The notes under the pieces: model-generated
Told to the model about the DNA's origin: nothing
Databases searched by the model: none
Seen by the model: only the letters and a program-made list of their open reading frames with translations
Shown here: piece after piece, positions 3,526 through 26,315 of the stretch
How positions within the stretch are numbered: the stretch's first letter is position 1
How the letters are laid out: each line of letters opens with the position of its first letter
Position numbers and translations under genes: made by a program
DNA from: Caldanaerobacter sp.
GTDB taxonomy: Bacteria > Bacillota > Thermoanaerobacteria > Thermoanaerobacterales > Thermoanaerobacteraceae
Length of the DNA stretch: 64,000 nt
Reading direction: 5' to 3'
Assembly (NCBI RefSeq): GCF_049701115.1
Contig: NZ_JBNATX010000001.1
Location: 166,698 to 230,697, forward strand

Positions 3526-4032
3526 TCAGTCCTTCATATCGAGTTCGGGCAATTCTTTTATGGAAGAGATTCCAAAGTACTTCAAAAAGTCCTCAGTAGT
3601 GGAATAAAGAATAGGCCTTCCCGGTGAAGGAGCTCTTCCGCTTTCTTTTATCAAATTGTACTCAAGCAACGTGTTTATAGGCTTATCACTTCTTACGCCC
3701 CTTATTTTTTCTATTTCTGCCTTTGTGATAGGTTGATTATAAGCAATTATGGCCAGTACCTCCAATGCCGCCTGAGAAAGTCCCTGTGCTATTTCTATTT
3801 TTAAGGCCTTCCTCACCACATCTCCGTACAAATCATTTGTGCACATCTCTACTTTATCCTCAAAGACCACTATATCTATGCCTCTCTCATGTTTTGCATA
3901 ATCTTCTTTTAAATCTTTAATCAGTTCTCTTACCCTTTCCTCACTAATTTCCAGGGCTTCCGCCAAGGTCCTTATTTTTACAGCTTGTCCGGCAGCAAAA
4001 AGAATAGCCTCAATTTTGCCTAATTGTTCCAT
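3526..4032 (-). CDS. scpB: SMC-Scp complex subunit ScpB
   Basis: IEAILFAAG, LSQAALEVLAIIAYNQPITK, GRPILYSTTEDFL. Confidence 0.95.
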   Translation of the reverse strand: MEQLGKIEAILFAAGQAVKIRTLAEALEISEERVRELIKDLKEDYAKHERGIDIVVFEDKVEMCTNDLYGDVVRKALKIEIAQGLSQAALEVLAIIAYNQPITKAEIEKIRGVRSDKPINTLLEYNLIKESGRAPSPGRPILYSTTEDFLKYFGISSIKELPELDMKD

Positions 4033-4750
4033 TTTTTCTCCCTTCTTTTCTTATAAAACTTATAAATATGTCTCCATAAGAAGTCTGCTGTTCTGCCATC
4101 ACTTTGTTAAGCTTTATAAGCTCTAAAAGAGCTACAAAAGACACTACTACCTCTACTTTGCTTTTGCTTTTTTTCACGATTTCGCTAAACCATATAACAG
4201 GTTTTTTTACAAGGTAAGAAAGCAGTTCTCTGATTTTCTCTACTACAGTATATTCTTCCTTCTTTATCTCGATTTTATTTTCCTCTTCTTTATTTCTCTC
4301 GATAATTCTTTTATACGCATTTTTTATGTCTTCTATTGAATAGTTAAGAGCGACCTTCTTATCTACATATTTCACATCAGGCCCTTCTCTAAAAAACCTC
4401 TGGTTTAGTCGGGACATCTCTCTCAAAATTCGCGCGGCTTCCTTGTATTTCTTATATTCTACAAGCTGTCTTACAAGTTCTTCCCTTGGATCCTCTTCCA
4501 CTTCCTTCTCTTCTTCTGATTTAAATTTAGGTAAAAGTAGTTTAGATTTAATTTCTACTAATGTGGCCGCCATTACTATAAATTCTGATGTTATGTCAAG
4601 GTCCATTTCCTGCAAAGTCTTTATATACTCCATGTATTGGTCAAGAATAAGAGAAATTGGTATATCCATCAGATCTATTTCATTTTTTTCAATCAAATGA
4701 AATAAAAGGTCAAAAGGGCCTTCGAAAACTTCTAATTTTACAGTGTACAT
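4010..4750 (-). CDS. scpA: Segregation/condensation protein ScpA
   Basis: FEGPFDLLFHLI, EFIVMAATLVEIKSKLLLP, VVSFVALLEL. Confidence 0.95.
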   Translation of the reverse strand: MYTVKLEVFEGPFDLLFHLIEKNEIDLMDIPISLILDQYMEYIKTLQEMDLDITSEFIVMAATLVEIKSKLLLPKFKSEEEKEVEEDPREELVRQLVEYKKYKEAARILREMSRLNQRFFREGPDVKYVDKKVALNYSIEDIKNAYKRIIERNKEEENKIEIKKEEYTVVEKIRELLSYLVKKPVIWFSEIVKKSKSKVEVVVSFVALLELIKLNKVMAEQQTSYGDIFISFIRKEGRKNGTIRQN

Positions 4751-10641: not shown

Positions 10642-10666
10642 ATTCGATATAAATTTAAAAAATCCT
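10642..10666 (-). promoter_or_regulatory. SigmaH-type promoter of spoIIA
   Basis: AGGA-N17-GAAT; spoIIA is sigmaH-dependent in B. subtilis. Confidence 0.7.
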
Positions 10667-10728: not shown

Positions 10729-11850
10729 AAGCCAGTAGTTTATTACTTTACTAAAATTCTCGAAAAGATTGGCTTTTTTGACCTCTTCGGCCGGGTAAAT
10801 ATCAAATTTTTTTATCACTTTTCCTTCAAGCAGAATCTTTACTATTCCGATAGAAGAACTTTTATTCACAGGAGCCTTTACATAGTCTTTAAGTTCGAGT
10901 TCTTTTTTAATATTTTTCCCCTCACCCTTTTTCACAACCACATATTCATCTTTTGGTGAAATGGCTTCTACCATGTCCTTTTTCCCTTTTAAAACTTTTA
11001 TTTTCCCTAGGACTTCCCCTTTTGAGGCGACTTTTATAGATTCAAAATTTGCAAATCCATAATCCAAAAGCTTTGCAGTTTCGTTAAACCGGGTTTCTGA
11101 ATCTGGTGCCCCAAATACCACAGCAATGAGTCTTGTATCTCCTCTTTTGGCAGTAGCCGCCATGCAGTACAGGGCTTCAGAAGTGGAGCCTGTCTTTATG
11201 CCATCTGCTCCTTTGTATCTCCATAGCAATTTATTTGTATTTATAAGGCTGAATTTCCCACCTCTTAAAGAGTCAATTTTATTAGTCAGGTAGTTAAAAA
11301 TAGAGGGGTGTTTCACAAGTTCTCTTGAAATCATTGCTATATCGTATACTGTAGTCAGATGACCTTCTTCAGGTAAACCTGTAGCATTTTTAAAGGTTGT
11401 GTTCTTGGCGCCCAGCTCTTTTGCCCTTTTATTCATCATTTCTACAAAATTTTCCTCTGTACCGGCTATATACTCGGCTAAAGCCACAGAAGCATCATTA
11501 GCTGAATTCATTGCGATTGCTTTCATTAAATCATCTACTGTCATCTCTTCTCCTACTTCTAGATAAATCTGGGTACCTCCCATATCAAAGGCATGTTTAC
11601 TAGTCACAACCTTATCTGTAACCTTAATCTTGCCGGAATCTATCGCTTCAATTGCTAAAAGGAGAGTCATTACCTTAGTAACGCTGGCAGGAGGTAAAGG
11701 TTTGTGAATGTCTTTTTCATATAAAATTTCTCCAGTTTCTGCCTCCATCAGTATTGCAGATTTTGCCTTTAAATTCAACCCATCTGCGTATGCAGTATTG
11801 ATCAATAAGGATATTACAACAAGCGCTGTCACTAATAGTTTTTTTGACAT
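10717..11850 (-). CDS. dacF: D-alanyl-D-alanine carboxypeptidase DacF
   Basis: SVTK, SAN and KTG motifs; directly upstream of spoIIA. Confidence 0.88.
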   Translation of the reverse strand: MSKKLLVTALVVISLLINTAYADGLNLKAKSAILMEAETGEILYEKDIHKPLPPASVTKVMTLLLAIEAIDSGKIKVTDKVVTSKHAFDMGGTQIYLEVGEEMTVDDLMKAIAMNSANDASVALAEYIAGTEENFVEMMNKRAKELGAKNTTFKNATGLPEEGHLTTVYDIAMISRELVKHPSIFNYLTNKIDSLRGGKFSLINTNKLLWRYKGADGIKTGSTSEALYCMAATAKRGDTRLIAVVFGAPDSETRFNETAKLLDYGFANFESIKVASKGEVLGKIKVLKGKKDMVEAISPKDEYVVVKKGEGKNIKKELELKDYVKAPVNKSSSIGIVKILLEGKVIKKFDIYPAEEVKKANLFENFSKVINYWLKNK

Positions 11851-11880
11851 AAAAAATTCACCCTCCTTTGCTGCTATTTA

Positions 11881-11909
11881 TATTTTGCACAGGAGGGTAA
11901 ATTTTATGC
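11881..11909 (-). promoter_or_regulatory. SigmaG/F-type promoter of dacF
   Basis: GCATA-N17-CAAAATA. Confidence 0.55.
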
Positions 11910-11912
11910 TTT

Positions 11913-12785
11913 TTAAGCTCTCGGATGAAATTTATTATAAACTTCTTTTATTTTTGAGCGAGATATAAAGGAAAATAGATTATTCCCAAAATCCGTCTCA
12001 TAACCCAGCATTTCTTGTACAGTTTTTATATCCGCACCATTTTGAATCATATGCTGTGCAAAAGACCTTCTCAATATATTAGGAGTTAATGGTAACCCAG
12101 GGCTTATCTTGTCAGCATACTCTTTTATTATTTTCCAGCAACCCTGCCTTGTTAGCCTTTTACCTCTTAGATTGAGAAAAAGAGTACTTTCTTCTTTAGC
12201 AGGCTTCCTTCCTTTTTCAATATATTCCTTTAAAGCTTCAATTGCATGACTTCCTATTGGAATTACTCTCTCTTTCCTAGAATGTACAACCACATAGCCA
12301 CTGGCTAGGTTTACATCCTCTATCTTTAACGATATAACCTCAGATACTTTAAGACCAGAAGCGTACATGAGTTCTATCAGGGCTTTATCTCTTAAACCTT
12401 TTTCATCCTTGCCGAAATCAAAAGACAAAAGCATATCTATTTGTTCCATAGTAAGAGTAATAGGGCTTCTTTTCTCCACTTTTGGAGCATTAATACCATA
12501 TGAGGGATCTTCTTCAATTTTTTTCTTTGCAAACAAATAATGATAAAACGCCTTTATAGAAGAAAGAGCCCTGGATATAGTAGCCTGAGACTTACCCTGT
12601 TGTTTTAAATAATAGAGGTAATTCAAAATGGTAGATTTCTTAACAGAATAAAAGTTTATTTGCTGTTCCTTCATATAGGATAAAAACTGCTCTATATCAC
12701 GAGAATAGGACTCAAGAGTATTATGAGATAGCCTTTTATTTCTATTCAAAAATTCCAGAAACTCCCCAACCACATTTTCAGCCAT
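11913..12785 (-). CDS. XerD/RipX-like tyrosine recombinase homologue with degenerate active site
   Basis: XerD fold end to end (LSHNTLESYSRD...RDKALIELMYASG...KEVYNKFHPRA) but catalytic motifs are altered; start placed at ATG 12785 after RBS AAGGGT. Confidence 0.85.
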   Translation of the reverse strand: MAENVVGEFLEFLNRNKRLSHNTLESYSRDIEQFLSYMKEQQINFYSVKKSTILNYLYYLKQQGKSQATISRALSSIKAFYHYLFAKKKIEEDPSYGINAPKVEKRSPITLTMEQIDMLLSFDFGKDEKGLRDKALIELMYASGLKVSEVISLKIEDVNLASGYVVVHSRKERVIPIGSHAIEALKEYIEKGRKPAKEESTLFLNLRGKRLTRQGCWKIIKEYADKISPGLPLTPNILRRSFAQHMIQNGADIKTVQEMLGYETDFGNNLFSFISRSKIKEVYNKFHPRA

Positions 12786-12841
12786 ACCCTTTTTACCCCT
12801 ACAATTTTCTAATTTTATGTATAAGTCCATTAATTATAAAT

Positions 12842-12866
12842 ATTCAACATAAATCGTCAATTTCCT
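12842..12866 (-). promoter_or_regulatory. SigmaH-type promoter upstream of the xerD-like gene
   Basis: AGGA-N17-GAAT, same spacing as upstream of spo0A and spoIIA. Confidence 0.6.
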
Positions 12867-12872
12867 TCTTTT

Positions 12873-13496
12873 TTACGACGAAAAAATAGGAAGAAATAGT
12901 ACATGGGGAGTAACATAGGATTCTATTAAACAACCCAGCATTATAAAAAGAAAACCCGCATATACCGCAAAACTGTAAGAAATGAATTGTGAAATGAGCT
13001 CTTCGAAAAAAAATTTTTTGTTTTTAAGAAGGTATAAAGAAAAATTGATTGCTGTTACAGAAGTAAAAAGTATTCCTAAAAGTATGAAAATATTCTGAGG
13101 AAGCAACCCTAAAATAGTCAACAGTACTCCTTTAAGCTGCATCTCTTTTATCATTATTCCTATTGAGAATCCAAGAGTAAACCCTCTAACTCCAACAATA
13201 AGGAAGATAAAAGGAATTCCAACTATGGTAGCTCCCAAAATCCACAGCAAAAAAACTGTAACAAAATTATTTAAAAGGGACTGTTTGAAAATCTGGACAG
13301 GATTTAATTCTACGGACTTTGCAATCTGGTAGAACTTGTCTATATATTCTTTTATCTGTTCCCTCTGAACCTCGGTGATATTATTTACGGTAAAAGTTCC
13401 TACAACAATGCCAATCATCAGAGCAGTTAAAACCAGAATATATAGAGAAAAATTTCCTTTTACATGAGAAGAAAATCCTGCTTTTATAAATTTCAA
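12873..13496 (-). CDS. spoIIM: Stage II sporulation protein M
   Basis: Multi-TM protein; GIPFIFLIVGVRGFTLGFSIG, LPQN and ESYVTP motifs. Confidence 0.92.
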   Translation of the reverse strand: MKFIKAGFSSHVKGNFSLYILVLTALMIGIVVGTFTVNNITEVQREQIKEYIDKFYQIAKSVELNPVQIFKQSLLNNFVTVFLLWILGATIVGIPFIFLIVGVRGFTLGFSIGIMIKEMQLKGVLLTILGLLPQNIFILLGILFTSVTAINFSLYLLKNKKFFFEELISQFISYSFAVYAGFLFIMLGCLIESYVTPHVLFLPIFSS

Positions 13497-20989: not shown

Positions 20990-21014
20990 ATTCTACATAA
21001 TAGTTGAATTTCCT
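20990..21014 (-). promoter_or_regulatory. SigmaH-type promoter of spo0A
   Basis: AGGA-N17-GAAT. Confidence 0.72.
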
Positions 21015-25486: not shown

Positions 25487-25517
25487 ACCACCACATTTAT
25501 TTTATTCTACATAAAAT

Positions 25518-26315
25518 TTATTTTTCCTGCCACAAATTTTTGAAAGCTTCTTCTACTATTTTTTCAACCTCTATTTCAATTTCGTCAGATTTCCCCTTTA
25601 TTCCATAAATAAGATACTCTATATTTCCTTCCGCTCCTTTTATAGGAGAATAAGTGATTCCACACACCCCGTAATTTATATTTTTAAACAATTTTATTAT
25701 TTTTTCAAGAACTTCTTTGTGTACGGCTTTATCCTTAACAATCCCCTTTTTGCCTACTTTTCCTCTTCCAGCTTCAAATTGGGGTTTTATCAAGGCTACA
25801 ATTTCTCCACCTACTTTTAAGAACTTGTCAGTTGATGGCACCACAAGCTCTAAAGAAATAAACGACACATCTATAGTAACTATATCCACTATTTCGGGTA
25901 ATGTATTCAAAAATCTTATATTAGTTTTTTCCATTACAAAGACTCTCGGATCATTTCTCAAACTCCAGTGGAGTTGCCCATAGCCTACATCCACAGCATA
26001 AACTTTTTTAGCACCATGCTTCAAAAGACAGTCAGTAAAGCCTCCGGTAGAAGCTCCTACATCTAAGGCAATTTTCTCCTTCACGTCAATCTGAAAAAAC
26101 TTGAGAGCTTTCTCCAGCTTTAGTCCTCCTCTACTCACATATGGGAGAGAATCCCTTTTTATCTCTATCTTAACATCTTCTCTTACCATTTCACCGGCTT
26201 TTTCGGCTCTTCTGTCGTCTACGTAAACTTCTCCTGCCATTATAGCTGCTTTTGCCTTTTCTCTTGAAGAGAAAAAACCTCTTTTTACAAGAAGTATATC
26301 TATTCTCTCCTTCAT
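25518..26315 (-). CDS. tlyA: TlyA family rRNA methyltransferase
   Basis: S4 domain, YVSRGGLKL, DVGASTGGFTD, LIKPQFE. Confidence 0.95.
   Translation of the reverse strand: MKERIDILLVKRGFFSSREKAKAAIMAGEVYVDDRRAEKAGEMVREDVKIEIKRDSLPYVSRGGLKLEKALKFFQIDVKEKIALDVGASTGGFTDCLLKHGAKKVYAVDVGYGQLHWSLRNDPRVFVMEKTNIRFLNTLPEIVDIVTIDVSFISLELVVPSTDKFLKVGGEIVALIKPQFEAGRGKVGKKGIVKDKAVHKEVLEKIIKLFKNINYGVCGITYSPIKGAEGNIEYLIYGIKGKSDEIEIEVEKIVEEAFKNLWQEK

Follow-up and report, generated by a model that had tools for sequence, protein, structure and literature searches.

What could keep a gene for XerD, the textbook half of the XerCD dimer resolvase, intact after its product had given up the active site with which it would cut DNA? 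The question is raised by a locus in a 64,000-nucleotide stretch of a Caldanaerobacter sp. genome (NCBI RefSeq assembly GCF_049701115.1, contig NZ_JBNATX010000001.1, positions 166,698 to 230,697 of the forward strand; hereafter the window). A reading made from the letters alone, the sequence-only reading, had described there a full-length XerD homologue with a degenerate active site and a sigmaH-type promoter, and had proposed a repurposed protein induced at the onset of sporulation. The assembly analysed comprises 2.13 Mb in 68 contigs, and the window lies on the contig termed C1 below. We favour the reading, at roughly even credence, that this non-catalytic XerD is kept for a catalysis-independent role at the replication terminus, with an intact recombinase performing dimer resolution. 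The gene in question is the following.

11913-12785, minus strand: xerD-like coding sequence, 290 amino acids plus stop; two-domain tyrosine-recombinase fold with a degenerate active site

The catalytic positions of the encoded protein were placed by alignment with E. coli XerD.

12348-12350, minus strand: codon of K146, at the Arg-I position (E. coli XerD R148)
12078-12080, minus strand: codon of N236, at the His-I position (E. coli H244)
12069-12071, minus strand: codon of R239, the retained and invariant Arg-II (E. coli R247)
12000-12002, minus strand: codon of Y262, at the His-II position (E. coli H270), changing LGH to LGY
11973-11975, minus strand: codon of F271, at the position of the nucleophilic Tyr (E. 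coli Y279)

Set against the canonical R-K-H-R-H-Y residues, the protein has R replaced by K, the two His residues by N and Y, and the Tyr by F, with Arg-II kept. The same columns separate a whole clade from canonical XerDs. Whereas the canonical proteins have Arg at the Arg-I position in 99%, His at the His-I position in 96%, and His-II and the nucleophilic Tyr each in 100%, the degenerate clade has Lys (10/14) or Arg (4/14) at Arg-I, N, S or K at His-I, Tyr at His-II (14/14) and F, L or I in place of the nucleophile. The beta-hairpin Lys could not be assigned, the GKG lysine being gone from canonical clostridial XerDs as well; the Lys of the KER motif is kept. All motifs quoted by the sequence-only reading (GLKVSE, VVVHSRKER, TPNILRR, LGY, NNLFSF and the C-terminal HPRA) are present, and its statement that only the second Arg remains is right for R239 and overstated otherwise, because the KER Lys is kept and position 146 is still positively charged. 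From these replacements we infer that the protein would no longer be able to cleave DNA. Beyond the catalytic residues, canonical XerD has 112 alignment columns with a conservation of 90% or more, and the degenerate clade keeps 78 of them unchanged; the columns with a differing consensus number 25 and are grouped on the catalytic motifs. Positions 264-269 are now variable, and Y262, C216 and M246 are newly fixed. One XerD of the sister order (genome G031) has Arg-I replaced by Lys (GIKVSE), with the Tyr and both His intact and an otherwise canonical sequence; it may be a first step on the same path or a tolerated variant.

The domains of the protein are those of a Xer recombinase. Pfam identified Phage_int_SAM_1 (N-terminal, SAM-like) and Phage_integrase (the catalytic domain), and the best-scoring NCBIfam model was XerD TIGR02225 at 322.7 bits, just under its cut-off of 329.6 bits, with the XerC model at 243 bits. 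E. coli XerD (PDB 1A0P) aligns with it end to end (E = 3e-44). An AlphaFold2 model computed from a 90-sequence alignment has a mean predicted local distance difference test (pLDDT) score of 88.3 and drops below 50 only at about residues 265-271, the former Tyr-bearing segment; the best Foldseek matches to this model were XerA 4a8e and XerD 1a0p. On these domain matches and the model, the predicted structure is the two-domain Xer fold. The longest open reading frame at the locus (11913-12830, minus strand, 305 amino acids) was not adopted, since its ATG at 12830 is not conserved among orthologues and falls at the predicted transcript start, inside the promoter. The orthologues all begin at the Met encoded at 12785, which gives 290 amino acids, and TAGGGGTAA is kept 5' of this start in all of them.

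12787-12800, minus strand: ribosome-binding region AGGGGTAAAAAGGG, ahead of the ATG at 12785

We searched for orthologues in the family, in 10 genomes of the organism's own (Thermoanaerobacter-like) genus and 9 of a second genus, which we named Thermoanaerobacterium from the names on the matched proteins. An intact orthologue is present in 10/10 of the former, at 75-87% identity in the nine others, and in 9/9 of the latter, at 57-62% identity; stop codons occur in 0/19 genomes. The loss of the Tyr, His-I and His-II is common to all 19 orthologues and to related metagenome proteins, and at the Arg-I position most members have Lys, some Arg. In a maximum-likelihood tree, 22 degenerate sequences form one clade (support 100/100, stem branch 0.87) nested among the canonical clostridial XerDs. 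A single nested clade implies one loss, and the tree thus places the dismantling of the active site in the common ancestor of the two genera.

The selection that followed was strongly purifying. Pairwise Nei-Gojobori ratios of nonsynonymous to synonymous substitution rates (dN/dS) were 0.02-0.22 for unsaturated pairs, mostly 0.04-0.10, and were alike low in both the N- and the C-terminal domain and across the final 60 residues; synonymous divergence is saturated across the two genera. With intact frames in 19/19 genomes and these ratios, the view that the gene is not simply decaying is borne out. Judged by its conserved positions, the protein has kept the fold, the DNA-binding surfaces and the C-terminal docking helix and has given up the chemistry. 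The gene order DUF3866-NUDIX-SpoIIM-XerD, which the upstream neighbour listed below defines, is also found around catalytically intact xerD in three other spore-forming Clostridia. The xerD-like gene is a vertical, positional and phylogenetic orthologue of clostridial xerD.

12873-13496, minus strand: spoIIM, upstream neighbour of the xerD-like gene (TIGR02831, 218 bits)

A catalytically intact Xer-type recombinase, for which the sequence-only reading had suggested looking, does exist elsewhere in the genome. The genome has five Phage_integrase matches: the xerD-like protein, a prophage integrase, two fragments of one broken integrase and a 317-amino-acid protein that carries the complete R-K-H-R-H-Y set. 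The XerC, XerD and XerA models score this last protein about equally, all below their cut-offs; databases label it XerC, and it shows 60-69% identity across many clostridial orders. This XerC-type recombinase is encoded in 21/21 family genomes (78-95% identity), and a palindrome stands beside its gene.

C1:136,988-137,941, minus strand: XerC-type recombinase gene, on the window's contig
C1:137,986-138,023: 30-bp perfect palindrome AATTATACGAAATA-GA-TATTTCGTATAATT, about 50 bp upstream of the XerC-type gene and about 28.7 kb before the window start

The cumulative GC skew of C1 peaks at 137,000, the mark of the replication terminus, and in 8 complete genomes the palindrome lies 49-53% of the chromosome from dnaA. 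It stands 5' of the orthologous gene in 21/21 family genomes, varying only in its central 2-4 bases, and is single-copy in 27/27 genomes of the order when up to 2 mismatches are allowed, with 0 matches for reversed-pattern controls. A homologous palindrome in the sister order has the form ATTGCACAAAAT-AAAA-ATTTTGTGCAAT, and others occur in a Proteiniborus genome and on a Mahella-like contig, where the site lies beyond lexA and not beside the gene. Read as 11-6-11, the palindrome has the architecture of dif. By the criteria used in the discovery of XerS/difSL (PMC1914069), the XerC-type enzyme and the palindrome together look like a single-recombinase dimer-resolution module. We found no published description of a clostridial palindromic module or of a dead XerD in open-access papers and preprints.

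A LexA box or simple operator was considered for the palindrome and rejected: the site is single-copy, diverges with the recombinase between orders and lies 1-7 kb from the gene in some genomes. Across Clostridia, the XerC-type gene stands in the context proC-rnhA-xerC-(lysM)-lexA-ynbB-like. Where the centre of the palindrome is asymmetric (AGTT/AACT; AGAT/ATCT), it flips relative to the recombinase gene between close genomes with identical arms, which could reflect inversion of the site or symmetric inversions around the terminus. A second, imperfect palindrome (2 mismatches) occurs on other contigs of three genomes (G009 C29:15011-15034; G010 C29:24467-24490; G015 C17:38562-38585); these copies could serve to resolve plasmid dimers, or could mark the junctions of elements that have no integrase and make use of Xer. 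At 58-71 of the window (C1:166,755), 29 kb from the dif-like site, there is a single palindrome arm with one mismatch (TATTTCGCATAATT), probably by chance.

The promoter of the xerD-like gene is represented by two overlapping elements, the first of which ends 56 nt ahead of the ATG at 12785.

12842-12868, minus strand: sigmaH-type motif GAAGGAAAT-N-GTTGAAT, of the form RNAGGAWWW-N12-RNNGAAT, with the core AGGA-N17-GAAT at 12842-12866
12833-12860, minus strand: sigmaA-like TTGACG-N16-TATAAT (11/12 matches), overlapping the sigmaH-type motif; lineage-specific

The sigmaH-type motif is found in 19/19 orthologous loci, 34-56 nt before the start, with spacer and flanks that vary between genera; the sigmaA-like element is found in only 3/19 (at least 5/6 matches in both hexamers). 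Among the sites of this type in the window, three on the minus strand lie at 25504-25528, 20990-21014 and 10642-10666. The last two directly precede spo0A and spoIIAA, respectively, which confirms the shared AGGA-N17-GAAT layout pointed out earlier. The pattern AGGAWWW-N11-12-RNNGAAT has 6 matches in the window against 1.4 expected, and the stricter RNAGGAWWW-N11-12-RNNGAAT has 89 matches genome-wide against about 19 in shuffles, an excess of about 4.7-fold. Other genes that follow the motif, named from their N-terminal sequences alone, are presumably spoVG, two spoVS, dnaG, mraZ, parB and hbs, together with what we take to be a minC-like gene, hfq and ppnK; the 89 matches form a ready-made predicted sigmaH regulon. 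The genome also has a sigH gene (TIGR02859, 386.9 bits). In its motif and spacing, the presence of sigH and the classical targets of its class, the element has the properties of a sigmaH-type sequence motif, and as a motif this predicted promoter is well supported.

What the promoter means is a separate matter. Its conservation and the classical targets of its class uphold the earlier proposal of a sigmaH-type promoter, but it has no tie to the degeneration. A strict sigmaH-type motif stands at the same place before three clostridial xerD genes that are canonical and catalytically intact, and the motif was not found before the xerD of the sister order, a non-sporulating-looking group in which the upstream neighbour is not recognisably SpoIIM. 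We accordingly rejected the promoter as a mark of repurposing; because canonical xerD genes carry it, it appears to be ancestral to clostridial xerD. In a Proteiniborus sp. (CP127161.1, 1420-1500 of the locus), a sigmaH-type AGGATTT-N12-CGTAGAAT lies directly 5' of the palindrome and the XerC-type gene. SigmaH may thus control the gene of the resolvase, too, in some Clostridia, with the site at the transcript start.

We hypothesized the following course of events. The XerC-type enzyme would act as a homomer on a palindromic, 11-6-11-type terminus site and resolve chromosome dimers. XerD catalysis would thereby become dispensable, because the other recombinase would do the resolving, and xerD would then either disappear, as it has from several sister lineages, or persist for the non-cutting activities of XerD. 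Of these, the one most likely to have been retained would be a handling of the terminus by the DNA-bound protein as cells pass into stationary phase and sporulation, in which the pocket residues Lys/Arg146, the KER Lys, Arg239 and Tyr262 would grip the DNA phosphate without attacking it. One candidate would be the unloading of SMC-ScpAB, after the example of B. subtilis XerD at dif-like XDS sites; another would be to signal to the FtsK/SpoIIIE translocase that it should stop or hand over. The second role of XerD, SMC unloading by site-specific binding in B. subtilis, was proposed only recently: as cited in PMC11840125 and PMC12322038, Karaboja 2021 identified XerD as a sequence-specific factor that unloads SMC-ScpAB at XDS sites, which lie in the terminus of B. 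subtilis. As for the translocase, FtsK stops at XerCD-dif (PMC2800217). The SMC kleisin and accessory subunits are encoded 7 kb downstream of the xerD-like gene on the same strand (within 3526-4750), and SMC-ScpAB was judged to be present from scpA and scpB.

4010-4750, minus strand: scpA (PF02616, 131 bits)
3526-4032, minus strand: scpB (PF04079, 197 bits)

Several observations weigh against this catalysis-independent role at the terminus. Searches for XDS-like sequences (centre plus XerD arm, up to 3 mismatches) gave 6 matches outside open reading frames, none of them near the terminus, and palindrome half-sites are not enriched on the terminus contig; the DNA specificity of the xerD-like protein may differ from that of the B. 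subtilis XerD arm used as query. The residues with which E. coli XerD contacts FtsK-gamma (PMC5052618) are not conserved; this mapping is uninformative, because canonical clostridial XerDs lack those residues too. Relatives that have kept spoIIM, dacF and spoIIA sporulate without xerD, and therefore its function is dispensable or replaceable; sporulation as such does not require the degenerate protein. In the sister order, a canonical XerD stands beside the same kind of XerC and palindrome module, which means that the module permits the loss of XerD catalysis and does not force it. Finally, the independence of SMC unloading by XerD from catalysis and recombination is only reportedly so.

Other results favour an alternative resolvase. 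The order has two genera with a degenerate xerD and six more in which none was detected, and these six retain both the module and spoIIM. Fuzzy searches of the genome with the B. subtilis, E. coli and Firmicute-consensus dif and core patterns found no dif of these types, the best matches having 7-8 mismatches, and no XerC/XerD-type dif with an XerD arm was found at the terminus. The two most dif-like matches lie inside recX and an M16 peptidase gene and were taken as chance.

Other explanations of the degenerate protein can be weighed on the same data. That it is a pseudogene-in-waiting without function would fit the disappearance of its catalytic residues and the outright loss of xerD in sister lineages, and yet the intact copies in 19/19 genomes, the saturated synonymous divergence and the low dN/dS refute it, and the promoter and ribosome-binding site are conserved; we consider it scarcely credible. 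Somewhat less remote, though still very improbable, is a protein that remains an enzyme with Tyr262 as a new nucleophile and a nicking or topoisomerase-like activity. The canonical His-II contacts the scissile phosphate, and it is this residue that is Tyr in 14/14 members of the clade and His in 100% of canonical XerDs, with Arg-II, the KER Lys and a basic residue at Arg-I also kept. We know of no precedent for a nucleophile relocated in this manner. The general-acid/base His-I has become N, S or K, the helix of the normal nucleophile is variable and poorly predicted, and replacement of Arg-I by Lys is crippling; for example, it traps the complex of the Tn1549 integrase, as the title of PDB entry 6en2 indicates.

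The remaining alternatives accept a DNA-binding protein without chemistry and differ in where it would act. As a partner of the XerC-type enzyme, either a subunit without catalysis or a regulator, it would sit at the palindrome, docking by its C-terminal helix, and would gate XerC through FtsK/SpoIIIE coupling or block it during asymmetric division. The C-terminal helix of Xer proteins docks into the partner, and this helix (KIKEVYxKxHPRA) is conserved here; by hand comparison, the palindrome arms match the canonical dif XerD arm TTATGTAAACT at 7-8/11 positions, and the xerD-like gene is only 41 kb from the palindrome. Against this, the palindrome is perfect and unchanged in genomes without xerD, and because it is unchanged there it needs no second protein; the C-terminus of the XerC-type enzyme also looks similar by eye in the genomes, with and without XerD, in which it was read. 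We regard such a partner as unlikely. That the protein has turned into a nucleoid protein or a sequence-specific transcription factor, with no relation to the terminus, seems more doubtful again: both DNA-binding domains are under purifying selection and terminus-linked sites were not found, as this explanation would have it, but it has no positive evidence, and the gene still has the ancestral neighbours of canonical xerD and its ancestral sigmaH-type promoter.

If a non-catalytic role at the terminus is accepted for these two genera, it could be extended. In spore-forming genomes of the Clostridia type, xerD in general might be a sigmaH-controlled terminus-handling factor, acting in SMC-ScpAB unloading and at the end of SpoIIIE/FtsK pumping, and dimers might be resolved at a palindromic dif by a single enzyme, the lexA-linked one of XerC type. 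We put this forward tentatively, as possible and on balance improbable. If it were true, the Thermoanaerobacter/Thermoanaerobacterium protein would be a natural catalytic-dead separation-of-function allele, and the second role would be the one under selection.

A comparison with described systems helps to place both proteins. The xerD-like protein shares with canonical XerD/RipX (TIGR02225; B. subtilis RipX) the fold, the length, the HPRA end, the LTRQGxWKIIK signature, the clostridial context and the position in the tree; in contrast to them it lacks the Tyr, both His and, in most members, Arg-I, and scores just under the equivalog cut-off in a genome where an XerCD-type dif was not found. 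The XerD-like YnbA of streptococci and lactococci (NF002685/PRK02436), a protein of about 245 amino acids without the extreme C-terminus, is nearer to phage integrases (Le Bourgeois 2007, PMC1914069). This degenerate streptococcal XerD coexists with the single recombinase XerS and has no part in XerS/difSL recombination (PMC1914069). Like YnbA, our protein is a conserved tyrosine-recombinase homologue that lacks catalytic residues and stands beside a single-recombinase module (XerS/difSL there, the XerC-type enzyme and the palindrome here). Unlike YnbA, it has 290 amino acids with a ...KEVYNKFHPRA end and groups inside XerD. The streptococcal parallel drawn by the sequence-only reading does not extend to family membership, the score for NF002685 being 65.3 bits against a cut-off of 178; because the protein fails that hidden Markov model, has its full length and originated within XerD, it counts as a case independent of YnbA. 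The parallel with XerS and its degenerate XerD suggests, by analogy, a general rule in which a single-recombinase dif module takes over and XerD is then lost or kept as a DNA-binding protein.

The SMC-unloading XerD of B. subtilis is similar in having a role beyond dimer resolution, with site-specific binding in the terminus there and scpA/scpB 7 kb away here; it differs in being an active recombinase as well, whereas here XDS-like sites were not found at the terminus and the link to SMC is only a predicted one. As for the module, it resembles XerS/difSL, XerH/difH and XerA/dif (PMC1914069, PMC2965235, PMC5357621) in pairing an intact recombinase gene with a palindromic site that occurs once, where the GC skew switches, and differs from them in that the XerC-type recombinase is of a different lineage and the arms of its site are perfectly symmetric. 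A full-length XerD without a nucleophile, under purifying selection in two genera, is independent evolutionary evidence for a selectable non-cutting function. It also offers a clean system for studying XerD function without recombinase activity, several of these thermophiles being genetically tractable, and it draws attention to a widespread clostridial recombinase and palindrome module at the terminus.

One side of the xerD-like gene has the D,D-carboxypeptidase gene dacF, followed by SpoIIAA, SpoIIAB and SigF; the other has spoIIM, then the NUDIX hydrolase and DUF3866. In two xerD-less genomes spoIIM directly abuts dacF, and in a third, from a sister genus (G001), an unrelated membrane open reading frame of 203 amino acids (691-1302 of the locus, minus strand), for which no NCBIfam match was found, lies between spoIIM and dacF. 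Downstream of the xerD-like gene there is a stable hairpin (-26.4 kcal/mol, z = -5.5, with 0/200 shuffles equally stable).

11847-11909, minus strand: hairpin with a U-run after it, in the gap that separates the xerD-like stop from the dacF start; the xerD-like transcript probably ends here

Because of this strong hairpin and U-run after its stop codon, the xerD-like gene looks monocistronic. The 3' arm of the hairpin covers the dacF Shine-Dalgarno sequence and abuts the dacF start codon, and the structure may both terminate xerD-like transcription and mask dacF translation.

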